Source of the DNA: a virus
Taxonomy: Duplodnaviria; Caudoviricetes
Direction: 5' to 3' (one strand)
Virus record (IMG/VR): IMGVR_UViG_3300022923_000057
Location: 1-32,971 of that record
DNA: 32,971 nt
Shown here: one piece after another, positions 2,863 to 32,970 of the stretch
Layout of the letters: every line of letters starts with the position of its first letter
Numbering within the stretch: position 1 is the stretch's first letter
Position numbers and translations under genes: made by a program
Notes under the pieces: model-generated
Seen by the model: only the letters and a program-made list of their open reading frames with translations
The model's database searches: none
What the model was told of the DNA's origin: nothing

Positions 2863-3443
2863 TAGATCATCTGCCTTGAATCGTAGTAGACCTTGTAGTT
2901 GTTCGCCTTACGGAACTGTGCAGTCGGTAGGAAGGTTGCAATCTCCCACTCAGGTGCAGGCACCTCTGCGAACTTACTCTGAACGTGTTTGTTTAAGTAA
3001 TGTTTAAAACACGGTTTGAAATACTTTAACTTAGATGACCTATTCAACAAAGTATAGGACAACTTAAATTTACTGTTGTCGTCTAGTTTGCTTCCTGCAA
3101 TACCCATCAACCCATCCAACATCTTCGCACGAAGAATCGGAGGCAGATAGTGTAGGTTGATTCCGTAGAACCCACCCGCTGCAGGCCCGACAACTACCAC
3201 CAACGGAAACGAATCATAGTAAGGAAGCGTATCTTTGTGTTTGGGGTCGTAGAAGAACATCTGCATGGAACCCACAACACTCTTACTTCCGGACTTAATA
3301 GGGTCTTCGTCCATCAACTGTTCACGGTTGATAGATCGAAGGTTCTTCGCCTTTTTCATGAACCACTCACGACTCTCCTTTGTACGGGGAGTAATCCCTG
3401 CACGGAATGCCTGCAGTTCTAGTCTGTTAAAAATGTTTGACAC
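2862..3443 (-). CDS. gp2: DNA end protector protein, T4 gp2-like
   Basis: FFYDPKHK.TLPYYD.FPLV, GINLHYLPP, KPCFKHYL..HV and W.IA.FLPT..F.K motifs. GTG start with a late promoter upstream. Confidence 0.9.
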   Translation of the reverse strand: MSNIFNRLELQAFRAGITPRTKESREWFMKKAKNLRSINREQLMDEDPIKSGSKSVVGSMQMFFYDPKHKDTLPYYDSFPLVVVVGPAAGGFYGINLHYLPPILRAKMLDGLMGIAGSKLDDNSKFKLSYTLLNRSSKLKYFKPCFKHYLNKHVQSKFAEVPAPEWEIATFLPTAQFRKANNYKVYYDSRQMI

Positions 3444-3480: not shown

Positions 3481-4074
3481 TCAGACTGGAGTTTTGTTCT
3501 TGTGTCCAAAATCTCTCTTGAGGAGATTTGGGTAATCTTCCTTCACAAAGTCGATGAGGGTTTGTATGTTATCATTTACGATATGAAATTCTAGGAATCT
3601 TGCATCGGTGGCTGCAGTTGTGAAGAAATTACGTATCTTGGTTTCCCACCTTTCCTTTTCCTCTTCCCATTGTTCCTTGACTTCTACAGGGGATTTGATG
3701 TTGTTGAACTTCATGTATCTTCTTAGGTAGTCGCCCCGTTTGTGTTTAGTTCTACTCTTGATCCAAGTTTTCGTGTCTCTTGTATTCAAAATAAAATATG
3801 CATCGGGGTATTCTGCATAGTATCTCTTGAAGAAATGTGTGCCTTCGATGTGTTGACTGTTCTTGGTATAACACACGTCAGAGAACACCTCAACGTTCTC
3901 CATCGTGTAGAGAATGGGTTTCTCTGCATCAATATTCTGTTGCATCTGTCTAGCAATATGACCACCCTCATTTTTCAGACAATGACACGAATTATATCCT
4001 GCTTTTTTAAACAGGTAGTGTAAAGAGGTTGTTGCGGTTCGATTGAATCCGATGAAGAATACTTTGCGTCTCAC
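3481..4074 (-). CDS. Sulfotransferase-family (P-loop) protein
   Basis: N-terminal KVFFIGFNRTATTSL resembles the 5'-PSB loop and YPDAYFILNTRD...WIKSR resembles the 3'-PB motif of PAPS-dependent sulfotransferases. The GTG start overlaps the gp4 TGA. Confidence 0.7.
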   Translation of the reverse strand: MRRKVFFIGFNRTATTSLHYLFKKAGYNSCHCLKNEGGHIARQMQQNIDAEKPILYTMENVEVFSDVCYTKNSQHIEGTHFFKRYYAEYPDAYFILNTRDTKTWIKSRTKHKRGDYLRRYMKFNNIKSPVEVKEQWEEEKERWETKIRNFFTTAATDARFLEFHIVNDNIQTLIDFVKEDYPNLLKRDFGHKNKTPV

Positions 4075-6731: not shown

Positions 6732-8084
6732 ATGGCCGTAGAATTAAATGCTCAGGATTTTAAATTCGTATCTGCGGTGATAACTCCTTCCCGTGGTAGC
6801 GCACAGGATGTGACCAAAGTTGTATCCGAATATGAAGTCTATGAGGACATTTCAAAACCGTACTGTACAGGAACTCTGTTAGTCGGTGATCAGACTGGTT
6901 GGATTGAGAACTACAGTGTCATGGGCACTGAGAGACTCGCAATTACCATTCAGGTAAACACCAGTAGTAAAGAACCCGATGGCCCAACATTCACGAAGAA
7001 CTGGATTATCCACTCTATCGAACGTGCAGTGAAGACGGGCGATGGTGATGGTAAGAGTGAGATGTACCTCTTCAATCTTGTTGAAGAACATGCCATGACA
7101 AGTAAGATGAAGAAGTTCAGTAAAGTCTATGGCAAAGGGAACAAGATAGAAGTTGAAATACTTAAGATTCTGAAAGCAGAACTTGGTAAAGACTTAAAAC
7201 TCAAGATCACTCCTTCAGTTCAGGAGAACTGGAAAATGATTGTGCCATACATGCACCCTCTTGAGGCTGTAGAGTGGATGCGTGATCGTGCAAGTACAGG
7301 TAGTGGACTACCCTTTTTATTGTATGCAAGTTTATATGATGATGCACTCAGATTAGCATCCTTAGACAAATTACAACAACAGGCTCCTTTCAATAGTGGG
7401 GAACCGTTTGTCTTCGCTGGTACTAACGTGCAATCCCAAGAATACAAAACAGCGTATGCCGGTAGATTCCGTCAAGTCAAAGGTTTTCGTGCAGTCAAAA
7501 TGGCACGTGCTTTCGAACAGATCATATCAGGCACATGTGGTGCAGCCTTCACTATGACAGAATTAGATGAGGGTAGAATTCAAGGTTGGGTTGGGAAACA
7601 TTACTCTATCTTGGACGTATTGGGTGCGATACCTAAAGATGGTACTCAGAACGTGTATGATGAGAAGTTCGCTGGTACTCAAGGGCCTGCTCATGTGAAC
7701 GATGCAAGAGTCATCCATCAAGTGTTGAGTAGAAAGACATATCGACCCGGCCCCAATTACAAGAGTTTCCACTGGGAACCCGATGGTGATGCACACATCA
7801 ACAAGATCAAAACACGTGCATGTCTTCAGATGATGTCCCGCAATACATACGAAGTGCGAATCAGTGGAAGAGACATTGCTGGTGGAAAGAAAGGTGTGGG
7901 TGATAGAATCAATATCCAATTTCCCGATAACAAAGTGGAAGAGGAAGCGGGTGCAGATAAATTAAAGAGTGGTTACTTCTTGATCACAAACAGTAAAAAC
8001 ATCTTTAAACAGGACGGTGGTGCGGGTTTGCACGAAGCGATCTTAACTGTTTCTAAATTCAATGAAGGGCCGAAGGAACTGTGA
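6732..8084 (+). CDS. Putative baseplate hub protein (T4 gp27-like)
   Basis: VYEDI.KPY.TG.L...D at the N-terminus and VGD.I.I.F...D..KSG.FLIT at the C-terminus; position between gp53 and gp5. Confidence 0.6.
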   Translation: MAVELNAQDFKFVSAVITPSRGSAQDVTKVVSEYEVYEDISKPYCTGTLLVGDQTGWIENYSVMGTERLAITIQVNTSSKEPDGPTFTKNWIIHSIERAVKTGDGDGKSEMYLFNLVEEHAMTSKMKKFSKVYGKGNKIEVEILKILKAELGKDLKLKITPSVQENWKMIVPYMHPLEAVEWMRDRASTGSGLPFLLYASLYDDALRLASLDKLQQQAPFNSGEPFVFAGTNVQSQEYKTAYAGRFRQVKGFRAVKMARAFEQIISGTCGAAFTMTELDEGRIQGWVGKHYSILDVLGAIPKDGTQNVYDEKFAGTQGPAHVNDARVIHQVLSRKTYRPGPNYKSFHWEPDGDAHINKIKTRACLQMMSRNTYEVRISGRDIAGGKKGVGDRINIQFPDNKVEEEAGADKLKSGYFLITNSKNIFKQDGGAGLHEAILTVSKFNEGPKEL

Positions 8085-8911
8085 TGGAATTACCAAAAGC
8101 GATACCCTCAGAATTTTATGGTGATAACCCTAGATGGTTCACTGCAATTGTTATTGATGCGAGACCTCCCGAAGGTGAAGGTCTGGAAGGTTATGTTCGT
8201 GTTCGTATTCATGGTGTACATTCTCCCTCACTGTTAGACATTCCAGAAGCTGATCTCCCTTGGGCACAGGTATTGATTCCAACTACCGAAGGTGGTAACT
8301 CAGGACTTGGTTCAACACCAAGAATTGAAGCAGGATCACTGGTCATCGGTCTGTTCATGGATGGACAATATTCTCAGGTTCCGGTTGTGTTAGGATCACT
8401 TCCTCACATGACTGTACCCACACCTATTCAAGAAGGATATGATCCCATCAAACCCGACACTGCGGGTGTTGAGTTGGGTACAATGGACTTGGAAGCTGTC
8501 GATAATGAAAACACAGGCCCAATTAGTAGTGCAGTACAGGAAAAGAGAATCGAAGAGAACATCAAGGCATTGATGGCCGAAGGAATGGACTTTGAGGGTG
8601 CACTAGCAATGACCGCAAAGATGGATGTTGGTTCCAACATGGTTACTGGTGAACATGCAGACGGAAGTTTCGGTATTGACAATTTCAAAGGGGAGAGACT
8701 TGACCAATTGAAAAGTTCTAGTCCGGACTATAATAACTTTGACAAACAGGTTGACTTCGTAAAGAGCGAACTAAATACAACCAAGGCGGAAGTCAAAGCA
8801 AACATGGGTAATAGTCTTACCAGTAAAATCAAAGCAACATCCGAAGGACAAAATGTTCAACAGATTGCGAATAAAGTATATGAACTCAATGACAAGTATG
8901 GGGGTGGTTGA
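8084..8911 (+). CDS. gp5: gp5 N-terminal OB-fold protein with a degenerate tail-lysozyme-like C-terminal segment
   Basis: WF...V.D......G.VRVRIHGVH.......DLPWAQV..P, G..V.G.FMDG..SQ.P.VLGS is the gp5 OB domain. The C-terminal part resembles phage tail lysozyme (see findings). Alternative GTG start at 8081. Confidence 0.8.
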   Translation: MELPKAIPSEFYGDNPRWFTAIVIDARPPEGEGLEGYVRVRIHGVHSPSLLDIPEADLPWAQVLIPTTEGGNSGLGSTPRIEAGSLVIGLFMDGQYSQVPVVLGSLPHMTVPTPIQEGYDPIKPDTAGVELGTMDLEAVDNENTGPISSAVQEKRIEENIKALMAEGMDFEGALAMTAKMDVGSNMVTGEHADGSFGIDNFKGERLDQLKSSSPDYNNFDKQVDFVKSELNTTKAEVKANMGNSLTSKIKATSEGQNVQQIANKVYELNDKYGGG

Positions 8912-10953
8912 TGTCTGTTAGAACTGACATAAAACAGGCCCTTGATATAAAATTAACGAGGGATGGTCAAAACACCACACTCTCAAACGAAATCAAAAAA
9001 GCCAAAGAATCTGAACTGGTTAAGAATGCGACTATTCTTGGTCAGGAAGCGGGGAAGGTAGAGAAGGGTTTCAAGAATCTTGAGACAGCAGTCTCTTCTG
9101 CCGGAACGTTTGAAGCAAAGGGTGAAGCGCTGGTAGAACTAACCGATCAGGTTGACGGTCTTGGTAAGACGTTTGATCGTGCAGCTACCGATATCAATTT
9201 AAGTGTTCCCGAATTGGGTGGAATTTTCGGTGAGGGTGAGGGAAGTCTTGAGAATCTTATTGATGGACTTGGATCCGGTGACTCAGCTTCACTGTTAGAC
9301 GGTCTTACCTCTACGGTAGAGGCAATCGGTGGTGACATTGCGGGACAGATTGCACAGATCATCACACTCCTAACCGGACTCGGTGCAATGCTTGATAACC
9401 TTAGCGCTGCGGGTGTATCTGGTAGTGGTATGGATGCATTGTCTAAGACTGGGGAAACAATGGCTGCAAAGGCAGATGGACTCATGGGAAGTCTGGAAAC
9501 TGCAGCGGGTAGTCTGAGTAGTATCTCCGATGTTTCTAGTTTATCAGAATTGACCGGAACAATCAACAACTTTGCACAAGATATTAGTAATGTTGCGAGT
9601 GAAATATCTGCGATTCAAAATATCAACCCTGCATCCGAATTCACCAACAACCTCTTACAGGATGATGTTGGCGGACTGTCAGAACTTGGAAAGACATTTG
9701 AAGATGCGAAGTCAACGGTTGACGGAATTACAGGTGAAGTCAATAGTGTTCTTGCCGAGGTGGACAAAGCTAAATCTTTTGTAGATGAAAATGTTAGTAA
9801 AGCAAGAGGTTTAGTGAATGAGGGGAAGGCTCTAGTTGGTGATCTTCAGACCGGAGGGGGTAAGTTACAAGACCTCGCTGAGAACACAACCCTGCAAGCC
9901 TCTGGTAAGGTCAATGACCTTCTTGGCGCAACAAGTCTTCGTGGTACAGGAGTAACTCCTAAACCCCAAGGCGGTGGCGGCGGAAGAGGTGGTAGTGGTA
10001 GTCTGAGTAAATCAGCAATATCCAATGTCATCAAACAAACACAAAGTGGTGCTCCTGTCGATCTTGCGAAGGCAGTTCAGACCGTGGGTGGTGGAAACGT
10101 TGGTGTCGATCCTTCAATCAAACCCATCCTTGCTAAACAAAAAGGATTCTCTAATACACGTGAGTTGGTAGAGAAGGTTGTCGCAGAATGTAAAACTAAA
10201 GGAATTGATCCAGCTTTGATTAGTGACTTTGTGAAAGTCATGGGTGTCGTGGAAGTGGGTGTTACCACAATCGACACAACAATCACAGACCAAATTAAAG
10301 TCGGTTCTCAGGAAAGAAGTATCTGGAAAGAGTCTTTCGATGTTGTTGGTTATCCAAGAGAATTTGATACGTATCAACGGTTTGAGACAGGGGAAATTAC
10401 TGCAGCGACACAGGCAAATTCGGTTACCGCAGAAAAGAAACCTATTGTATTCCAGACGTGTGATACCAAAGAAGAACTTCAGGCTGAGGTTCGTCTATTC
10501 AAACGTGAGATTCGATCTTTGATCATTCACTCTACAGAGTCGTTTAAGAATCAATACTTGACTGCAGAGATGTTACACGAAGATGCAAAGGCCCGTGGAT
10601 TCCCCACCATTCAGTATCACTATGTAATTCGCAGAGATGGTACGATGCAGAGGGGTATTCCAACAACATTGATTTCAGAACTTGACCCTAGAGAATACAG
10701 AAACACATCCATCAACATTGCTATGGTCGGTGGTATTGATGCGCCTAGTGGTACAGAGGGTGCAAACTCGTTTAGATCGGGTAACTCGTTCACTCTTGCA
10801 CAGTATCAAACTCTAGACACTTTCCTAGATACATTCTTTAAAGGATATCCTGGCGCCAAAGTATATGGTTATGGTGAACTGGTAGATACTACTAACGAAC
10901 CGTACTTTAACGTGGAGAAATATGTGCAAAGGAAATTTGGTAAAATACGATGA
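8911..10953 (+). CDS. Long low-complexity protein with a C-terminal T7-lysozyme/Amidase_2-like domain (possibly non-catalytic)
   Basis: C-terminal LIIHST...YHYVIRRDG...RG.P...SINIAMVGG...FT.AQ..TL...YPGAKVYG follows the T7 gp3.5 amidase pattern. The N-terminal ~500 aa are G/S/A/L/D-rich. Confidence 0.7.
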   Translation: MSVRTDIKQALDIKLTRDGQNTTLSNEIKKAKESELVKNATILGQEAGKVEKGFKNLETAVSSAGTFEAKGEALVELTDQVDGLGKTFDRAATDINLSVPELGGIFGEGEGSLENLIDGLGSGDSASLLDGLTSTVEAIGGDIAGQIAQIITLLTGLGAMLDNLSAAGVSGSGMDALSKTGETMAAKADGLMGSLETAAGSLSSISDVSSLSELTGTINNFAQDISNVASEISAIQNINPASEFTNNLLQDDVGGLSELGKTFEDAKSTVDGITGEVNSVLAEVDKAKSFVDENVSKARGLVNEGKALVGDLQTGGGKLQDLAENTTLQASGKVNDLLGATSLRGTGVTPKPQGGGGGRGGSGSLSKSAISNVIKQTQSGAPVDLAKAVQTVGGGNVGVDPSIKPILAKQKGFSNTRELVEKVVAECKTKGIDPALISDFVKVMGVVEVGVTTIDTTITDQIKVGSQERSIWKESFDVVGYPREFDTYQRFETGEITAATQANSVTAEKKPIVFQTCDTKEELQAEVRLFKREIRSLIIHSTESFKNQYLTAEMLHEDAKARGFPTIQYHYVIRRDGTMQRGIPTTLISELDPREYRNTSINIAMVGGIDAPSGTEGANSFRSGNSFTLAQYQTLDTFLDTFFKGYPGAKVYGYGELVDTTNEPYFNVEKYVQRKFGKIR

Positions 10954-12467
10954 GTAAGAAGACAGAAGCCGAACAGGGTACTATTCAGGAAAATGAGGGA
11001 ACTAACCTCTATGGGTTTCAAGACCCCACAGGAGAATTCCCTCGTGAAGATTATTGGGGAGAGAGTTCTATCAACCGTGCAGCACGTGGTGCTGGTGGTG
11101 TAGGACAAAAGGACAAACCCAATGATCTCACTATGTCTGCGGTGTTCCCCAATATCGACATGGGTCTTGGTACTGCAACACAGGGCGAAGATGGAACCAT
11201 TGAGTTCGAAACTAACACGGGACGTTCCAAGTATCCTTATAACAAGGTAACAGAGACTTACTCAGGACATGTCATTGAGATTGACGATACCGAAGGTAAC
11301 GAACGTGTCCTGATTCGTCATCGTACTGGTTCTGGTATTGAGATGCGTAAGGACGGGTCTATTTGGATCAGTGCAACCAAGGACAAGTATGAGACTGTCG
11401 GTGCGGACTGTAAGATTGTAGTCGAGGGTAACACGGAGATTGCCTATGAGGGCAACCTTGATATGTGGGTGGGTGGTAACTTCAACCTAGACGTTGGTGG
11501 TAACCAGAACATCAAGATTAAGGGTAACAAGAACGAGAGAGTTGCAAAGGATCACAAACACAGAACCTCTGGTAATTCCGAATATACCACAAAGGGGAAT
11601 GCAAAGATTTCCACAATGGGCATTCACACCGATGCGTGTCTAGGTGATCTACGTAAGACCATCACAAAAGGTAAACACGAAATCTCTGCAGAGGGGGCAG
11701 TAGACTTGGTATCTGATACCACACTCCTTCTTTCGGGTAAAAAGGAGGCGGTCATGGTATCGACTGCCTGTAACATCTCTGGTACAACCGTATCTGCAAT
11801 TGGTATGAAAGGATCGTTTGGTGGTGACTTCGTAGACTTCTTTGGTAAGTCTTTCTCAGGGCCACTTGGGCCCCAACCCGCATCTGGTGCTGCCTTCTAC
11901 GGATCGGTGATCGGGACTTCTCTATTCTCAACTTTCTCACAGTTTGCGGGAGAGTCATTACGTGCGGGAACTGCGGGTGCATTGGGCCCGCCTGGTTGGG
12001 GTCTTGCTGTAGTTCCTCCGGTTGTTCCGATTCCACCTACATCACCCCCTCCTAAAGCTGCATTAGTCGGACTTCACCTTGCGGGCGGTGCGTATGCGAT
12101 TCGTACCGTAACCATCGATGCGGGTGGGACACTGAAATCAAAAATTCTCAAAACAGACTCCTATGGTGGTGTCTTTGATGATGGTGAACCTACGACTCAA
12201 GAAGCACGATCTGCAATGCGAGATGCTTCAAACAAAGATGCGATTGGTGCGTCACTGGCAGTAGACGGTGTTATCAGTGACAAACTTGACGATGTTGTTC
12301 CACCCAACATTGGTAGAACGGCTGGTAAAGCAAGAACAACACAATTTGGTAACACGCCTTTGGGTAATACTATCAAAGGACTTGGTAAACAATTTACAGT
12401 ATCGAAACTAGAAGAGGAAGTGGAGTTACCTCCGCCTCAAATAAGAGTGAGTGAGGATTCGGCATGA
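10950..12467 (+). CDS. gp5: gp5 C-terminal part (beta-helix spike protein)
   Basis: GF.DP.G.FP, YPYNKV.ET.SGHVIEIDDT.G.ER....HRTGS..E, followed by V.GN-type beta-helix repeats (VEGN, YEGN, VGGN, VGGN, IKGN). Confidence 0.8.
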   Translation: MSKKTEAEQGTIQENEGTNLYGFQDPTGEFPREDYWGESSINRAARGAGGVGQKDKPNDLTMSAVFPNIDMGLGTATQGEDGTIEFETNTGRSKYPYNKVTETYSGHVIEIDDTEGNERVLIRHRTGSGIEMRKDGSIWISATKDKYETVGADCKIVVEGNTEIAYEGNLDMWVGGNFNLDVGGNQNIKIKGNKNERVAKDHKHRTSGNSEYTTKGNAKISTMGIHTDACLGDLRKTITKGKHEISAEGAVDLVSDTTLLLSGKKEAVMVSTACNISGTTVSAIGMKGSFGGDFVDFFGKSFSGPLGPQPASGAAFYGSVIGTSLFSTFSQFAGESLRAGTAGALGPPGWGLAVVPPVVPIPPTSPPPKAALVGLHLAGGAYAIRTVTIDAGGTLKSKILKTDSYGGVFDDGEPTTQEARSAMRDASNKDAIGASLAVDGVISDKLDDVVPPNIGRTAGKARTTQFGNTPLGNTIKGLGKQFTVSKLEEEVELPPPQIRVSEDSA

Positions 12468-24848: not shown

Positions 24849-27269
24849 ATGGCACGTCCAATTACAGCTTTAACAGATTCGTTTAAGATTCTTAGAGACA
24901 ATCTTAACACCATCTCTAACAATGTCGGCGACCCTGATCTTCTGACTACTACGTCTAGAGCCTTCACTGAGGGTAATACCGATGTTGCACAGAGATCAGA
25001 CTCTTCCGATGTTGTAAGTGCCTTAAACGAACTAGATTCTGACCTTCACGGGCTTGGCGGTGGTGATGTCAAGAACGATCTGAACTACCTCTCGTATGCG
25101 ATTAATCGTGTACGTGACAGTGGTATGACGGGTGCGATCAATGCCATCGACGCATATATCGGTGGTGACTCCGATACTCTTAATGTTGAAGCGAATACAA
25201 TCAGGGATGCGATCAACGAGATCGAAGCTGTCTTTGATGCAAGTACACTCAAGATCAATGCGGGAGGTAACTTCCGGTTTGATGGTGCGGGTGACCTAGA
25301 AGTCAACTTGGATGGGGGTGATGTTACCTTCCTCAAGGACTCTGAACAGTACGCACAACTTACTTTAGGAACAACAACCACACTCGACATTACTGTTGCG
25401 GGTAAGATCGTAACAGCAGATTCGACTGGTGGTACATTTGAGATCGATGCAGGGGGTGACATCACCCTTGACGCAGACGGTAACCAAATCAGATTCAAGA
25501 ACGGTGCGGGTGGAGACGAAGTAACTCACACTCTTGCAGACGATGCAACCTACGAGATTGACGCACCTTCTACTTACACAGTGGACGCAGTTGGGGACAT
25601 TATCCTTGACGCAGACACAGGCAGAGTACGTATCAAAGACGGCGGGACTGAGGCTTATAACTTCCAGTCCAACGGTATCGTAACCTCTGCGAATGCTCTA
25701 TTCGTCAATGCATCTGACTTCACCCTGAACACAGACAGTGCGGGTGTTGCGACTATTTCGTTTACGACTGACAGTGCGAACAGAATTGTCTACACATTGA
25801 CTCCATCGAATCAAACGATGGCAGTAACAAATGACTTGACAATTGACGCTTCTCGTGATATAATCCTAGATGCTGCCGGAGCGGATATAGATATGCAAGT
25901 TTCTGGTACATCCAGAATCAAGCATACTATGGGTGACAGTAATACCGTTGCGGTAACTGGACACTATACTCTCGACGCATCTCAAGACATCATCCTTGAT
26001 GCGGGTGGAGACAACATCTACTTTGCGGATGGTGGTTCTAAGAGATTTACTTATACTCTTGGTACGAACCAAGAAATCGACGTTGTAGGTAACCTCACCT
26101 ATGACGTGGCTGGTGACATCAACCTAGACGCTGGTGGTAATACGGTTAACCTGAAAGGTAACGGTACAACCAGAATCTCACACGAATTGGGTGCGACAAA
26201 CACTACCACAGTAACAGGTAATCTGACAGACAGTATCTCTGGTGACTACATTCGAACTGTAGGCAATCAGACGATTACTGACAGTGATTATACTCACACA
26301 TCGAATACAGCCACTCACAACACTACAGGTGATTTCACCGTAGACGCAGAATTGGATATTGTCCTTGATGCAAATGGTGGAGACGTATTCCTTAAAGACG
26401 GTGGTACAACCTACGGTTCTTTGACTGCGACAGGTTCTAACCTGATCGTCAAGTCTGGTACGACTACTGCACTGACATTCTCTGGTGCGAACGTAACGAC
26501 TGGTGGTACAGTAACCACAGGTGGTAATGTCACGATGGGTGGCACAACCATTTCAAGAACTGGTGTGTTGACCCTTGACGTTTCGTCTAACATTAACCTT
26601 GACGCTGGCGGCGGTAACATCTACCTCAAAGATGATGGTACTCAGTACGGTAACCTAAAGTGGGGGGTTGGAGACAACCTTATCATTCAGTCTAAGAATG
26701 TCACTGCGGTAACATTTGACTCAGGTGAACGTGCAACATTCGCTGGTGATGTTTATCAAGGTACTTCGCTCAACACCGAATCCGGTCACTTGGGTGGTGC
26801 GATCAACGAAGTCCATGATCAATTAGATTCTGCAGCCGGAGAGATTGCACTTCATGCAGGAAGACTAAATACCCTAGAATCTGAGATGGATTCCAACGAG
26901 ACCCTTCTTGGTGCTACTCTACTTTACAATGTAGATAATCCTTATAGTTGGGTTAAGTCTACTCCGGTTAAGACTGCAATCAATGATCTAGATAGTGCAG
27001 TTGGTACGTTATCTGATCTGGATGGAACCACATTCGTATCTGCCTCAGACAAGGCAAATGTTGTGGCTGCACTCAACGTGCTTGCGGGTGACGTACAACA
27101 ACTTCAAGACAGCGCTGGAACACTGGACGCTAGAATCGGATCACTTGCAAACCTTGCTGCATTCTTTGATAGTGCGGGAGCGACTGCAAGTATTGTAAAC
27201 GCCCTGAACCATATGGCAAGTAGAGTAGTGGATATCTATGATGAGAATGGCACTCTCTTAAATACTTAA
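24849..27269 (+). CDS. Fibre protein (fibritin/whisker position) with DxxxDIxLDAxG repeats
   Basis: About 8 copies of xDxxxDIxLDAxG (e.g. DAGGDITLDADG, DASQDIILDAGG), flanked by A(I/L)NE-type helical repeats at both ends. Confidence 0.65.
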   Translation: MARPITALTDSFKILRDNLNTISNNVGDPDLLTTTSRAFTEGNTDVAQRSDSSDVVSALNELDSDLHGLGGGDVKNDLNYLSYAINRVRDSGMTGAINAIDAYIGGDSDTLNVEANTIRDAINEIEAVFDASTLKINAGGNFRFDGAGDLEVNLDGGDVTFLKDSEQYAQLTLGTTTTLDITVAGKIVTADSTGGTFEIDAGGDITLDADGNQIRFKNGAGGDEVTHTLADDATYEIDAPSTYTVDAVGDIILDADTGRVRIKDGGTEAYNFQSNGIVTSANALFVNASDFTLNTDSAGVATISFTTDSANRIVYTLTPSNQTMAVTNDLTIDASRDIILDAAGADIDMQVSGTSRIKHTMGDSNTVAVTGHYTLDASQDIILDAGGDNIYFADGGSKRFTYTLGTNQEIDVVGNLTYDVAGDINLDAGGNTVNLKGNGTTRISHELGATNTTTVTGNLTDSISGDYIRTVGNQTITDSDYTHTSNTATHNTTGDFTVDAELDIVLDANGGDVFLKDGGTTYGSLTATGSNLIVKSGTTTALTFSGANVTTGGTVTTGGNVTMGGTTISRTGVLTLDVSSNINLDAGGGNIYLKDDGTQYGNLKWGVGDNLIIQSKNVTAVTFDSGERATFAGDVYQGTSLNTESGHLGGAINEVHDQLDSAAGEIALHAGRLNTLESEMDSNETLLGATLLYNVDNPYSWVKSTPVKTAINDLDSAVGTLSDLDGTTFVSASDKANVVAALNVLAGDVQQLQDSAGTLDARIGSLANLAAFFDSAGATASIVNALNHMASRVVDIYDENGTLLNT

Positions 27270-27284
27270 TAAAAGGACGGTGGA

Positions 27285-29774
27285 ATGCCAATTGCGAAAA
27301 GTAAACCGCTTAAACTCCAAAGTCCGGATCAAGGCGATTTAAAGAGATTAAGTAGTACCGAAGAAAACTATCTGTCATATCTGGTAGGAACTCATCTTGT
27401 CGAAACAAGTAGCGATATCGGTGATATTACGCTTACTTCGACAGGCAATACTTCTATTGGCTCTCATTTAGATACTTTCTTTAATCAGGCGATAGGTACA
27501 CACCCAGGCTCTTCGATCACTTCAGGAACAACGGAGACCACCCTCTATCAGGTTGCGGGAACTGCATCCGAAACCGATTCGGACTTCCGTAAACCAGTCT
27601 CATACTATAATCCTCCGACAGACGGGCCTACCAGTCTATTGGAGGGTGTGCATGAGATGGCAGATTCAGACATGAACCGTTTGGTTGACCGTCTCAACGG
27701 CCGTATCGCACTATCTGATTATATTGGTCAATATAAACTTGGTTCTTCTTCGCCTGGCGGAGACTACACCACACACATATCTAACGTGTTCTCTGATACT
27801 CTCAATAGTGGACTTGTTGCTAATTATAACATATATCGTAGAACAACGCAAGCACAACCTACCAGTATTTTAGACAGTGATGGTACTGTAACCGCACTCA
27901 TGTCTATTAAGAGAAGTAGCGGCCGCACAGGAACATATCAGGGTGTTGAACGGATGACGAACCGACAGATGAAAATCTCGTTGGGTCAACGTGCGAAGAC
28001 TAGACGTGCAATTGCAGATAGTATTGGGTCTTATCAATTAAGGTCAAGTTCTCAGGGCGCACCTCTGACGGGTTCTTGGAGAGCCGTTGGTACTGCGACT
28101 GACACTAAACAAATCTTGGAAGAGACTGCATATACTCGTACAAGAGTTTCGACTTACAATAGAGACCGAGCTTCAACCTATACTCGTGTATCGACACGCA
28201 CCAGTACTAGAGACTTTGCTGGAGATTATGTAGGTAACTACTCAAGAACGTTTGAAGGTAATTATAACAGAACCTTCGTGGGTAATTATGTAGGCGACTT
28301 CATTGGTAACTACACCCGAACCAGACTCTCCATTTATAACAGAACCAGAACTTCTGCATACACTGGTGACTATGTTGGTAACTACACTAGACTCTTTGGT
28401 GGTAACTATACCAGAGGCTTCCTTGGAGAATATGCCAGAAACTTTGCGGGTGACTACACAGGCAATTACTCTAGAAACTTCGAAGGTAATTATTCTCGTG
28501 CTTTTACTCGGACTAGAGCTTCTAATTATACCAGAACGTCAACCAGAACGTCAACCCGCACAAGAACTTCTGCATATGCTGGTGATTTTGTTGGTAACTA
28601 TGGTCGTTCTTTCACAGGGAATTACAGTCGTGGTTTTGTAGGAAACTATGGTAGAACCAGAGTATCCTCTTATTCCCGAAACTTTGCAGGAAACTTTTTA
28701 GGCGAATATACACGTACATCAACACGTACATCGACAAGAGATTTCACCAGAGATGCGATTTACCCTGACTATACTCGCACAAGTGTCCGTGATGGGTACT
28801 ACTTTAGATTTGGAAACCCCGATACTTGGTCTGAAGTTCAGACCTTTATCGGCCCTGCTTATTATACGGGTAACTATACATTATCTCCTAGCTTTATAGG
28901 TAATTATACTACAGTTAGGTCTTCTGCTGTACAGTATGGTAGACTTATATTTTATATACAAGGCCCAGATAACGTAGATGCCGAAGGATTTCCTATCGGC
29001 AATATGTACAGTCGTTTTTTGTACTATGCCAGAACAGCATTCTACACTGGTAACTATACAAGAACCAGCATTACTTCTTTTACGGGTAACTACTTAGGAG
29101 ACTATGCTGGTAACTTTTTAGGTGATTACACTCGTACATCAACACGTACAAGAACGTCCGGTTATAGTAGAAACTTCGTAGGTAATTATAGTAGAACCAG
29201 AAATTCAGCATACTCACGCACCAGAAACTCAACGTACACACGTACCTCAACCCGAACAAGTTCTACAGATTTTGTTGGAGACTTTGCGGGTAACTTTGTT
29301 GGTGATTATGCTAGGGACTTTGTTGGTAACTATTCACGATCATATACCAGAACAAGAGTCTCGGCCTACACCAGAAACTCTACTCGGACACGTCCCTCTA
29401 CATATTCAAGAACAAGAGTCTCTGCCTATACTCGTGGACGGGCATCCGCATACTCAAGAACCAGAATTACTGACTACTCACGTGATTTTATCGGGGATTA
29501 CTCTAGAGGTTTCTTGGGGAACTACACAAGAAACTCACTAAATACCTTTAGTCGAGATCGTGTATCTGCATACTCCAGAAATAGAGACTCCACATATGCC
29601 AGAACGAGCACACGAACAAGGGTTTCCAGTTATGCAGGAGACTTTACTGGTGATTATGCTAGAACCTTTGTCGGAAATTATTCCAGAAGTTTCTTAGGAA
29701 ACTACGTTGGAACCACGATTGGTTCTTCCACTTCAGTCATTGAAACGTACACCTTGTATGTTCGATATGCATAA
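27285..29774 (+). CDS. Putative virion fibre/appendage protein with mirror-complementary tetrapeptide repeats (paralog 1)
   Basis: ~282-aa non-repetitive N-terminal domain, 52 tetrapeptide units, a 112-aa centre, 52 mirror units and a 19-aa tail. Function inferred from genomic context only. Confidence 0.7.
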   Translation: MPIAKSKPLKLQSPDQGDLKRLSSTEENYLSYLVGTHLVETSSDIGDITLTSTGNTSIGSHLDTFFNQAIGTHPGSSITSGTTETTLYQVAGTASETDSDFRKPVSYYNPPTDGPTSLLEGVHEMADSDMNRLVDRLNGRIALSDYIGQYKLGSSSPGGDYTTHISNVFSDTLNSGLVANYNIYRRTTQAQPTSILDSDGTVTALMSIKRSSGRTGTYQGVERMTNRQMKISLGQRAKTRRAIADSIGSYQLRSSSQGAPLTGSWRAVGTATDTKQILEETAYTRTRVSTYNRDRASTYTRVSTRTSTRDFAGDYVGNYSRTFEGNYNRTFVGNYVGDFIGNYTRTRLSIYNRTRTSAYTGDYVGNYTRLFGGNYTRGFLGEYARNFAGDYTGNYSRNFEGNYSRAFTRTRASNYTRTSTRTSTRTRTSAYAGDFVGNYGRSFTGNYSRGFVGNYGRTRVSSYSRNFAGNFLGEYTRTSTRTSTRDFTRDAIYPDYTRTSVRDGYYFRFGNPDTWSEVQTFIGPAYYTGNYTLSPSFIGNYTTVRSSAVQYGRLIFYIQGPDNVDAEGFPIGNMYSRFLYYARTAFYTGNYTRTSITSFTGNYLGDYAGNFLGDYTRTSTRTRTSGYSRNFVGNYSRTRNSAYSRTRNSTYTRTSTRTSSTDFVGDFAGNFVGDYARDFVGNYSRSYTRTRVSAYTRNSTRTRPSTYSRTRVSAYTRGRASAYSRTRITDYSRDFIGDYSRGFLGNYTRNSLNTFSRDRVSAYSRNRDSTYARTSTRTRVSSYAGDFTGDYARTFVGNYSRSFLGNYVGTTIGSSTSVIETYTLYVRYA
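28131..29714 (+). repeat. Coding 12-nt-period degenerate repeat (units [YF]xRx, [FY]xG[NDE], [RS]xxx) arranged as two mirror arms, 28131-28754 and 29091-29714
   Basis: Parsed by hand from the translation; both arms are exactly 624 nt. Confidence 0.9.
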
Positions 29775-29811: not shown

Positions 29812-32800
29812 ATGTCTTCGAACATACCACTAAAACTAGAAGGAACGAATGGCGATCTTCAGGAGATGACCTCTACTGAAGAGAACTATTTGGCCTATGT
29901 GGTTGGTAAGGATAACCTAGTAGGAACATCCAATGATGTGAGTGACATCACACTGACATCTGCTGGCAACACAACCATTGGTTCATATGTAGATACGTTT
30001 TACAATCAAGCGGTTGGGACACACCCTGCCTCTTCGATTACTGGCGGATCAACCACAACGACTGTTTACCAGACTGCGGGAACGAAGACACCCTCATCTG
30101 GTTCTTTGCGTCCTGTTGGTTATACGACTGTTAGTTCAACACCAAGTTTATACGAAATGAATGACTCGGACATGAATGTCCTTGCAAGAAGACTTAACTC
30201 TCGTATCGCAACTTCCGACTATCCTGGCGTATTCAAACTCGGATCGTCTTCGCCTGGCGGAGATTATGCAGCACACATTGCCGGTGTCTTTACTGATACA
30301 CAGACCGATGGTACAAGTGTAACATACAACATTTATCAGAGAAATGCAATGACTGCACCAACTACGGTCAGACCTATTGGTCTTCGTAGTGATGGTGATA
30401 CTCAAGAGATGGCGGATTCAGACATCTCTGATAGTATTGGTGCGTTCGTAAGAAATATTCGTGCAACGGCTGGTGAGATTGGTTCTTATCAGTTGCGTTC
30501 TGCTTCGCAGGGTGCACCTACAGATGCTGGTACGTGGACTGCGGTAGGTACTGCCACAGACACTAAGAAAGACACAGCTGAGACATCATACACTAGAACA
30601 CGTACCTCAGCTTATACTAGAAACCGTGCATCGACATACACAAGGGATCGTGTTTCTACCTACACAAGAAACTCGACACGTACTCGCACGTCAAGTTATC
30701 TTGGGGATTATATCGGGGATTACACTCGTGGGTTTATCGGAAACTACAGCCGAGACTTTGCGGGGGATTATGTCGGGGACTATGTTGGTAACTATGCCAG
30801 AACTCGCACATCAACATACACCAGAAATAGAGTAACCAACTTTGCCGGTAACTTTATTGGCGACTATACTCGCACACGTGTTTCATCTTATACTAGAGAT
30901 CGTGTTACCAACTTCACTCGTGATCGTGTTTCTACCTATAATAGAACAAGAACCTCTACGTATTCAAGAACTCGCATCACCGATTATGTTGGCGACTTCA
31001 TTGGTAACTACACCAGAGACAGAATTTCTACCTACTCAAGAACTCGTGTATCATCTTATGCGGGTGATTATGTAGGTAATTATAGTCGTGCATTCCTTGG
31101 GAATTACTCTAGAGATTTCGCAGGTAACTACGCAAGAGATTTTGCAGGCGACTATCTTGGTAACTATGCAAGAACTTCTACTAGGGATTCTACTCTAGGT
31201 AGAGATTCTACTTATTCAAGAACGTCAACTCGTACAAGAGTTTCAACTTACACAAGAACACGTGCAACCAACTATCAACGCACACGTAATTCAGCTTACA
31301 CAAGAAATTCGACTCGTACCAGAACTTCGACTTATACCCGTGACAGAGTAACTAACTTTGCTGGTAACTTCGTAGGCAACTATGCGAGAAACTTTGCAGG
31401 CGACTTTGTGGGTAACTACGCCCGTGGATTCTTGGGTAACTATGTTGGTAACTTTGTGGGTAACTACACTCGCACGGGTTATTATGCCGGTGACTTTGTT
31501 GGAGAATATTCTCGTACAAGAACTGCTACGGGTGATTATACTCGTAACAGTACACGTACAAGTACACCAACCGGAAACTATCAAAGAACCAGAACTGCAA
31601 CAGGTACGTATACTCGTACCTCTACCAGAACAAGTACTCCGACTGGCACATACACTCGTACAAGAACTGCAACGGGTACGTATACTCGTGTATCGACACG
31701 TACAAGAACTGCAACGGGTGATTATACTCGTGTTAGAGCGGCAACGGGTACGTATACTCGGGCCCGTGCTGCAGGGGTTGCGTATACTCGCAACCGTGTT
31801 GGTGCGGTGGCTTATACCAGAACCAGAGTTGCTACGACTAGTTACACAAGAACTCAGAACTACGCCCGAACACTGTATTATGTTCGGTTTAATAATAACC
31901 CTTATGAACCAGACGTTTTAACTTATACTAGTATTGGATATTATGCACGGACAACTAGTTACAACAGATCGGCATCATATACGGGTAACTACTCTCGTAA
32001 CGTAACGTATGCGGGTAACTATGCGAGAACTGTGTACTACACTGGAAACTACACGAGAACCCTGTACTACACAGGTAACTACACGAGAACTCTATACTAC
32101 GCTGGTGACTTTACGGGTAACTATCAAAGAACCCTGTACTACGCTGGAAACTACACGAGAACTCTATACTACGCTGGTGACTTCGTGGGTAACTACACGA
32201 GAACTCTGTACTACGTTGGTGATTATACCCGTACTCTATACTACGCTGGTGACTTTACAGGTAACTATACGAGAACCCTGTACTACGTTGGTGATTACGC
32301 AAGAACGTCTACACGAACATCTACACCAACATTAGATTACACACGTACTCGTGCAACTGATTATACGAGAAACAGAAGTTCAGCTTATACTCGCACATCA
32401 ACTCGTACTCGTGGTTCTGCATATACCCGTGACAGAGTAACTGACTTTGCCGGTAACTTTGCGGGTAACTACGCAAGAAACTTTGCTGGTGATTACACAG
32501 GCAATTACTCTCGTGGATTCCTTGGTGATTATGTGGGTAACTTCGTAGGTAACTATGCGAGAAACTTCGCAGGCGATTATGTGGGTAACTATTCTAGAAG
32601 TTTCCTTGGCAACTTCGCAGGTAACTTTGTGGGTGAATACACAAGAACATCCCTAAGAACTCGTACTTCTTCCTACAACCGAACAAGAACTTCAGCATAC
32701 ACCAGAAGCAGAACATCTGCTTACGCAAGGACATCTACCCGTACAAGTACGAGCGACTTCCTTGGTGAATACACTCGTGGGTTCTTGGGTAACTACACAA

Positions 32801-32970
32801 GAAACAGTCTTAATACATTTACTGGCAATTTCTTGGGTAACTATTCACGAGACTTTGCTGGAAACTACTCAAGAACATTCACAGGCGATTACTTGGGTAA
32901 CTTCATCGGTAACTATACCCGTGGATTCCTTGGGGAGTATACTCGTGATCGTGTGACTGACTTTGCCGGT
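29812..32970 (+). CDS. Mirror-complementary repeat protein, paralog 2 (>1053 aa, truncated by the window end)
   Basis: Not in the ORF track. Begins MSSNIPLKLEGTNGDLQEMTSTEENYLAY. The N-terminal domain is clearly paralogous to 27285..29774 (PLKL..GDL..STEENYL.Y, DTF.NQA.GTHP.SSIT, IGSYQLRS.SQGAP, W.AVGTATDTK). The frame is open to the end of the window. Confidence 0.85.
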   Translation, partial: MSSNIPLKLEGTNGDLQEMTSTEENYLAYVVGKDNLVGTSNDVSDITLTSAGNTTIGSYVDTFYNQAVGTHPASSITGGSTTTTVYQTAGTKTPSSGSLRPVGYTTVSSTPSLYEMNDSDMNVLARRLNSRIATSDYPGVFKLGSSSPGGDYAAHIAGVFTDTQTDGTSVTYNIYQRNAMTAPTTVRPIGLRSDGDTQEMADSDISDSIGAFVRNIRATAGEIGSYQLRSASQGAPTDAGTWTAVGTATDTKKDTAETSYTRTRTSAYTRNRASTYTRDRVSTYTRNSTRTRTSSYLGDYIGDYTRGFIGNYSRDFAGDYVGDYVGNYARTRTSTYTRNRVTNFAGNFIGDYTRTRVSSYTRDRVTNFTRDRVSTYNRTRTSTYSRTRITDYVGDFIGNYTRDRISTYSRTRVSSYAGDYVGNYSRAFLGNYSRDFAGNYARDFAGDYLGNYARTSTRDSTLGRDSTYSRTSTRTRVSTYTRTRATNYQRTRNSAYTRNSTRTRTSTYTRDRVTNFAGNFVGNYARNFAGDFVGNYARGFLGNYVGNFVGNYTRTGYYAGDFVGEYSRTRTATGDYTRNSTRTSTPTGNYQRTRTATGTYTRTSTRTSTPTGTYTRTRTATGTYTRVSTRTRTATGDYTRVRAATGTYTRARAAGVAYTRNRVGAVAYTRTRVATTSYTRTQNYARTLYYVRFNNNPYEPDVLTYTSIGYYARTTSYNRSASYTGNYSRNVTYAGNYARTVYYTGNYTRTLYYTGNYTRTLYYAGDFTGNYQRTLYYAGNYTRTLYYAGDFVGNYTRTLYYVGDYTRTLYYAGDFTGNYTRTLYYVGDYARTSTRTSTPTLDYTRTRATDYTRNRSSAYTRTSTRTRGSAYTRDRVTDFAGNFAGNYARNFAGDYTGNYSRGFLGDYVGNFVGNYARNFAGDYVGNYSRSFLGNFAGNFVGEYTRTSLRTRTSSYNRTRTSAYTRSRTSAYARTSTRTSTSDFLGEYTRGFLGNYTRNSLNTFTGNFLGNYSRDFAGNYSRTFTGDYLGNFIGNYTRGFLGEYTRDRVTDFAG
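30589..32970 (+). repeat. Coding tetrapeptide repeat with mirror symmetry about the loop at 31891-31923
   Basis: Hand translation and unit-by-unit alignment. Includes a perfect 35-bp direct repeat at 32077-32111 and 32149-32183. Confidence 0.9.

Follow-up and report, generated by a model that had tools for sequence, protein, structure and literature searches.

The two long repeat arms of one viral protein match each other when one of them is read in reverse unit order, and the question raised by this locus is whether such an arrangement reflects a chain that folds back on itself and, if so, what kind of structure it builds. The window analyzed here is a 32,971-nt stretch of DNA from a virus of the class Caudoviricetes (IMG/VR record IMGVR_UViG_3300022923_000057). 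The 829-aa protein is encoded on the plus strand at positions 27285–29774, and its repeat region (28131–29714) corresponds to residues 283–810. It comprises an N-terminal base, an outgoing arm, a variable tip, a return arm and a C-terminal clasp; the middle part of 112 aa and the tail of 19 aa have the lengths given in a preliminary description of this DNA, which had been made from the nucleotide sequence alone. A paralogue that shares both the base and the pairing rule (29812–32970, plus strand) is cut by the window end and is 1157 aa long in the sibling locus L004.

Neither protein could be assigned to a family in Pfam, PHROGs or NCBIfam at the thresholds used. Searches of PDB sequences with the 829-aa protein gave only rows of E >0.04, Foldseek found nothing at E 0.001 or better in the PDB and BFVD, and the ESM Atlas returned unnamed viral clusters only, with scores of 0.80–0.81 that lie within the chance range. 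The largely open-access literature searched contained no description of this family. The family, structure and literature searches are thus in line with the earlier remark that no described phage fibre family with this code was known; the fibre architecture appears undescribed, and no solved structure was found.

Reverse-order matching of the arms

Four-residue units of three classes make up the arms, namely A (aromatic-x-Arg-x), G (aromatic-x-Gly followed by Asn, Asp or Glu) and R (led by Arg or Ser). The 52 units of the outgoing arm (residues 283–490, 28131–28754, plus strand) had been proposed to match without a gap the 52 units of the return arm (residues 603–810, 29091–29714, plus strand) taken in reverse order, and exactly such a match is found, including every example pair quoted at the time. 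Under the original class definitions it consists of 30 G:R pairs, 18 A:A pairs, 3 A:G pairs and one pair of A with an unclassified unit, YVGT (aromatic-x-Gly), which corresponds to the fourth G:A pair of the earlier hand count; R:R, R:A and G:G pairs are absent, as had been noted. The residues facing each other sum to i+j = 1092. In this register G:R and A:A pairs together make up 48 of 52; the next-best register scores 29/52.

The permutation test that had been suggested was carried out with 180,000 shuffles of three kinds. Free shuffling (100,000 shuffles) gave a mean of 17.4 and a maximum of 32, shuffling of octamer blocks (20,000 shuffles, best of 21 registers) a mean of 23.8 and a maximum of 34, and Markov models of order 1–3 (20,000 each) maxima of 36–40; no shuffle exceeded 40, and the real score of 48 was reached by none. 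The class mutual information amounts to 1.28 bits for the antiparallel arrangement in register, as against at most 0.54 at any parallel offset. All Tyr and Phe residues of both arms occupy one phase of four, and the G units are distributed aperiodically, with up to three in succession.

The symmetry exists at the protein level. No DNA inverted repeat accompanies it, as the preliminary description had remarked: the ORF contains none longer than 21 nt (at 71%), and over 401 offsets the reverse-complement identity between the arms averages 26% and peaks at 35%. An origin of the symmetry from a DNA inverted repeat or from sense–antisense coding is ruled out, since symmetry at the DNA level is absent. 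An assembly artefact is unlikely because the whole stretch is contained in one contig of run X11, a run which is not marked as a possible source but is identical in year and habitat label to the possible source runs of the stretch.

The base domain and the predicted structure

The N-terminal base consists of three repeats. Repeat 1 (aa 4–95, 27294–27569, plus strand) is made up of two strands, a helix and a β-hairpin according to the DSSP assignment of the AlphaFold model, with pLDDT mostly >85; in repeat 2 (aa 100–190, 27582–27854, plus strand) the hairpin is closed by a short turn, and in repeat 3 (aa 200–282, 27882–28130, plus strand) the hairpin strand continues into the outgoing arm, both assigned by AlphaFold and hhalign. 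The hhalign comparisons gave E 1.1e-7 (probability 94%) for repeats 2 and 3, 2.4e-5 for repeats 1 and 3, and 0.017 for repeats 1 and 2, and three matching DSSP units are present in the base of both AlphaFold models, those of the 829-aa protein and of the short homologue P0142 (396 aa), built with 78 and 64 sequences, respectively.

In the model of the 829-aa protein the base has pLDDT mostly >90, and two long strands, 265–299 and 791–827, extend from it; these proximal strands are continuous. Strand pairing was read from the DSSP strand limits and confidence rather than from coordinates. Adding the strand ends gives 1092 for the query and 636 for P0142, which is the covariation register in each case; in P0142 the ends match the predicted register both at the base and at the tip, apart from one low-confidence strand pair that sums to 632 instead of 636. 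In the AlphaFold check proposed earlier, the ends of the proximal strands lie on i+j = 1092, and the rest of the arms has pLDDT <50 in both models. The covariation in register and the modelled proximal strands together support the fold-back geometry.

The clasp (aa 811–829, 29715–29774, plus strand) had been expected to return to the N-terminal domain. The two modelled strands and the repeat homology agree with this expectation: the clasp, with pLDDT 90–96, forms the last strand of base repeat 3 in the model, and weak alignments link its YTLYVR motif to the return strand of the hairpin in repeat 2 (E 0.009) and in repeat 1 (E 0.034). The motif is thus predicted to be the return strand of the hairpin of the third repeat, completing the base. 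With the last strand of the protein predicted to complete the third of the three base repeats, the arms are best described as one hugely extended hairpin of base repeat 3.

The pairing rule across the family

Three homologue searches with the base yielded the best 120 of 201, then 113, and then 12 proteins, and an exhaustive search showed that the family comprises 327 clusters at 50% identity. Among 349 proteins, 247 are complete and carry both anchor motifs, with a length range of 381–4046 aa. Phage C48C1 is the only annotated phage record among the matches.

In 49 non-redundant homologues, aligned by motif anchoring only, the pooled mutual information peaks at i+j = 1092, the register of the query, with a value of 0.62, compared with 0.24 (maximum 0.32) in the arm-swap null and 0.57 in the neighbouring register two residues off. 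The signal is carried by one face, on which aromatic:aromatic, Arg:Arg and Gly:Gly residue pairs are nearly absent. The aromatic:Arg and Gly:Arg/Ser cross-pairs envisaged in the preliminary description do lie on one face, and aromatic:Arg and Gly:Ser are enriched in the homologues. On the second face, which is weaker in this respect, Asn:Asn, Asp:Asp and Val:Val/Ile are enriched (58 vs 27, 27 vs 14). A second covariation diagonal was sought in the homologues and was not found; since only the directly opposite unit adds information for predicting Gly (log-loss +0.06, compared with about 0 for offsets of 1–2 units), the coevolution check reveals a single antiparallel diagonal.

When 51 representatives were compared over their first 12 anchored pairs, Arg/Ser-led units stood opposite an aromatic-x-Gly unit in 135 of 175 cases, against a background of 364/1224. 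A wider set of 102 representatives gave 223/322, with an arm-swap mean of 0.38 (maximum 0.48) and 0.41–0.52 in slid registers. The rule is obeyed by 208 of the 249 Arg/Ser units of the 79 representatives that are in phase, and by just 15 of the 73 in the remaining 23, which are out of phase at the fixed anchor. Among 1207 unit pairs from 55 non-redundant homologues, R:A was seen 20 times (167 expected) and R:R 4 times (32 expected, the arm extents having been set by the aromatic-phase rule, which slightly disfavours R:R), while there are 289 A:G and 104 G:G pairs. The strict reverse-complement code proposed at first is not supported in that form, as pairs of the last two kinds are common family-wide; in the query taken by itself the code is nearly realized. 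Because only R:A and R:R are strongly avoided, the pairing rule is one-way and steric, Arg/Ser-led units needing aromatic-x-Gly opposite, and is not base-pair-like. In close orthologues the class changes are mostly one-sided and step through A:G or G:G; with these pairs being so common, the query therefore resembles a two-letter code because Gly is used in it almost only where required.

Arms of equal length in all homologues had also been expected. Instead, small bulges occur in 6 of the 16 proteins that were given gapped pairing, among which P0122, P0007 and P0142 have weak scores (3.3, 8.0 and 5.5), and the return arm of the C48C1 protein contains long non-repeat insertions. With the query-type score, a clear pairing run was obtained in none of the eight long homologues of the Tyr/Gly type. 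In two proteins, P0237 and P0243 (3118 and 4046 aa), the base and the C-terminal clasp are retained and enclose irregular repeats rich in Tyr, Gly and Pro; this score detects no pairing run in them.

Matched changes of arm length

The paralogue shares 55% identity with the query in the base. Its residues 348–555 pair with 843–1050, and i+j stays at 1397 across repeats of 10 and 14 residues as far as a short turn near aa 698; among 69 positions there are no aromatic:aromatic or Arg:Arg pairs. In the complete paralogue of L004 (12528–16001, 1157 aa) each arm is about 440 residues long, and its distal part is built of 10- and 14-residue repeats that match between the arms. The paralogue of L005 (12483–16070) is split by a frameshift near residues 803–815, either biological or an assembly error.

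Compared with its L004 counterpart, the L007 paralogue has six additional units at one position and three fewer at another, in both arms and at mirror positions. The six additional units correspond to a tandem 72-nt copy in each arm, identical at 62/72 (86%) and 60/72 (83%) positions, while the best values of the same comparison in L004 are only 48/72 and 44/72. These copies represent two distinct duplications, located about 2 kb from each other and similar in age. The L006 protein has one unit fewer than the query in both arms. The L005 and L007 proteins each pair internally over 50 units with no gap, although separate alignments of their outgoing and return arms to the query disagree over part of the length, with 30 and 33 of 51 units aligned alike.

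The C48C1 homologue (L001 19995–30038, OQ984149) has 3347 aa and pairs in nested segments, with the long non-repeat stretches inserted in its return arm. One of the six pairing runs (501–576 with 3061–3136, score 20) breaks the nesting, and the register of 583–854 has near rivals. One inserted stretch of about 60 aa occurs twice in tandem in the return arm. A tail assembly chaperone gene (PF16778) is located directly upstream of the gene for this homologue.

The variable tip

The tip (aa 491–602, 28755–29090, plus strand) shares 23–39% identity with five orthologues, compared with 63–79% for the base and 44–66% for the arms. Four of the 24 listed runs were used for strain comparison; the RNA run X12 among them consists of contigs only and does not indicate transcription. 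All four differences within the ORF in run X11 fall in the tip (N540D, T543R, A566G and one added codon), and a strain in run X22 is about 94% identical on both sides, with residues 480–604 replaced by a stretch 63 nt shorter. Variation and exchange concentrated in such a tip are typical of host-recognition modules. The tip may be forked, as two variable loops appear to flank a short segment shared with L005 and L007; that of L006 is shorter and has a single loop.

Genomic context

The window contains a T4-like tail module with genes for the tape measure, baseplate hub, tail tube, gp53, parts of gp5, gp25, gp6 and gp8, and the gene for the 829-aa protein comes after the baseplate wedge genes. 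The best matches of a 1907-aa DUF4815 protein of the module are C48C1 and two Pelagibacter myophages (31–34%). The runs in which the 829-aa gene was found are mostly labelled as salt marsh metagenome.

Several neighbouring genes are worth describing. An upstream gene (24849–27269) encodes an 806-aa protein with about eleven DA.GDI.LDA-like repeats and only a weak PHROG match, likely another fibre or a partner. A sulfotransferase-domain gene (3481–4074, minus strand; PF17784, E 4e-14) lies within the tail module, and gp5 is divided among three genes (8081–12467), encoding the OB domain, an amidase-bearing protein and the C-terminal trimerization part. Three genes for proteins of about 155, 244 and 235 aa follow the fibre genes in all seven loci (L004–L009 and L012) and in C48C1 (L001 30133–32013); the second has a weak match to glycosyltransferase 2 (E 0.025, below the cut-off), and together they could encode a chaperone and modifying enzymes. 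By raw count, N-x-S/T motifs hold 16 of the 33 Asn residues of the arms.

Models of the fibre

That the chain folds back is highly probable, and this element is common to the two leading readings. Of these we favour, at somewhat better than even chance, a virion fibre in the form of a single-chain two-stranded ribbon clamped at its base and bearing a host-sensing tip. The chain would run out for about 208 residues from the three-repeat base, turn at the variable tip and return, and the matching arms would zip into a two-stranded antiparallel β-ribbon of about 70 nm (208 residues × 0.33 nm, or about 69 nm, with an extended shape assumed), holding the tip away from the particle. The last 19 residues are predicted by AlphaFold to complete base repeat 3, which would clamp both chain ends. 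Alternate residues (Tyr/Phe, Arg, Gly, Ser) may line one face as an aromatic–Arg ladder; where a unit has Arg or Ser in place of the aromatic residue, the opposite strand would have to offer Gly and supply the aromatic one, while Thr/Val/Asn/Asp pairs would line the other face. A:G and G:G would be tolerated like wobble pairs, which would allow one arm to change before the other and both to grow through matched duplications. The aperiodic order of units may set the register, the pseudo-threefold base could let one chain stand in for a trimer, and the base would dock at the baseplate with the tip binding the host surface. The fullest version of this proposal, in which single-chain ribbons of 70 to >300 nm have their register set by aperiodic unit order like an RNA stem, with bulges and side domains as well as wobble pairs, and form a programmable, chaperone-light rod that evolves by matched duplications and belongs to a fibre class beyond the trimeric ones, is more tentative and falls a little short of an even chance. 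Several points count against the ribbon. The arms are unmodelled, so that the ribbon itself is absent from the AlphaFold models, and one strand pair of P0142 is off register. With only two strands over 200 residues, the edges on either side would be unprotected, and trimers are the usual form of phage fibres. The out-of-phase representatives, the weak scores of P0122, P0007 and P0142, the long Tyr/Gly-type homologues and the middling Z scores of the fold matches also weigh against it.

The main rival, which we regard as possible but rather unlikely, keeps the same hairpin and tip and assembles three chains into a six-stranded antiparallel barrel like the gp37 needle of T4, with the Thr/Val and Asn/Asp layers inside and the aromatic–Arg ladder outside. 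Strand edges would then be buried, the enrichment of Asn:Asn, Asp:Asp and Val:Val/Ile on the second face would suit a layered core, and the needle offers a six-stranded antiparallel precedent (PMC9659904). Against the barrel, threefold symmetry is already built into the base, which a single chain is confidently modelled to form; the search for covariation gave just one diagonal, although this test is weak; His is missing from the arms; and one-sided bulges and inserted domains seem easier to accommodate in a ribbon.

Two further readings are each improbable. The antiparallel arms might form two small meanders or solenoid halves side by side, the fibre then being much shorter than 70 nm. Although Gly-Asn and Gly-Asp are common turn dipeptides and AlphaFold does not resolve the arms, the aperiodic G units, the tolerance of single-unit paired indels, the continuity of the modelled proximal strands and the residue-level pairing, whose sum does not shift where the period is 10 or 14 residues, argue against this reading. 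Alternatively, the ribbon could be real and serve as a strut, a decoration or a polycation tether binding anionic polymers lengthwise, which would agree with the net charge of the arms of the 829-aa protein (+42) and with there being no annotation that links the gene to adsorption; against it stand the concentration of variation and exchange in the tip and the many homologues with Arg-poor, acidic arms. Finally, the arms are of low complexity and a periodic background raises off-register scores, but low complexity, an inversion in the DNA or misassembly can be dismissed as the source of the symmetry, a view refuted by the shuffle nulls (block and Markov models included), by the register of the homologues and by their arm-swap nulls, with DNA symmetry absent and a one-piece contig in run X11.

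If the fold-back ribbon exists, phages possess a fibre design distinct from trimeric helices, coiled coils and needles. Its likely host-binding part lies in the middle of the gene, where tools inspecting fibre C-termini would miss it. From the family, rules of cross-strand pairing could be tabulated on a large scale from natural sequences, and it could be tested directly how two strands separated by hundreds of residues settle on a single register; a rod lengthened by matched four-residue units would be useful as a protein ruler or spacer.

Comparison with known systems

Cross-strand pairs of aromatic residues and Arg are known to stabilize core-less β structure in tryptophan-zipper hairpins and aromatic–Arg ladders, and the G5-E repeats of SasG form long, thin monomeric β rods. 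These are short peptides or chains of small domains, whereas the fold-back protein would be one continuous hairpin with halves up to 500 residues apart; in the fold searches a G5 domain appeared in a single row of Z 2.1.

In gp37 of T4 the chain goes out and returns to the base domain, and the needle is held by His-bound iron. Out-and-back antiparallel strands of this kind are indicated here by the covariation and the modelled proximal strands, while the arms of the 829-aa protein have no His among 416 residues and hence lack the metal-binding feature. No sequence match to gp37 was obtained in the PDB sequence searches, and no gp37 or collar chain was among the matches listed in the wide fold searches, which does not exclude a collar fold. 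The gp37 needle at the tip of the long tail fibre is a three-chain, six-stranded structure of about 150 × 25 Å (PMC9659904, PMC3004832), and the likeness lies in a slender distal rod that is made of antiparallel β strands and ends in the receptor-binding part (PMC9659904). The fold-back arms are roughly fivefold longer, with about 970 outgoing residues at most, in C48C1, and they differ in having a four-residue pairing rule and a three-repeat base. The gp37 needle can be considered a functional analogue whose base appears to differ.

The top four fold matches of both models are β-prisms of the MABP (MVB12-associated β-prism) type (8b6v, 2qp2, 3tow and 6sb1), with middling Z scores of 5.1–7.2 (<8) compared with at most 2.8 for the next row, rmsd of 3.5–5.5 Å over 113–124 residues, and sequence identity of 7–15% in the structural alignments. 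MABP domains consist of three homologous segments with internal threefold symmetry (PMC2881412), and in MPEG1/perforin-2 one hairpin of the MABP domain is elongated and contacts acidic lipids through its tip (PMC6753088). Three homologous segments are likewise seen in the base by hhalign and in its DSSP units. On the modelled fold, then, the base resembles the MABP β-prisms, as a likeness and not as membership: the gene lies in a phage tail module with no MACPF domain, each base repeat carries a long helix, and the hairpin follows a repeat code over a length of hundreds of residues.
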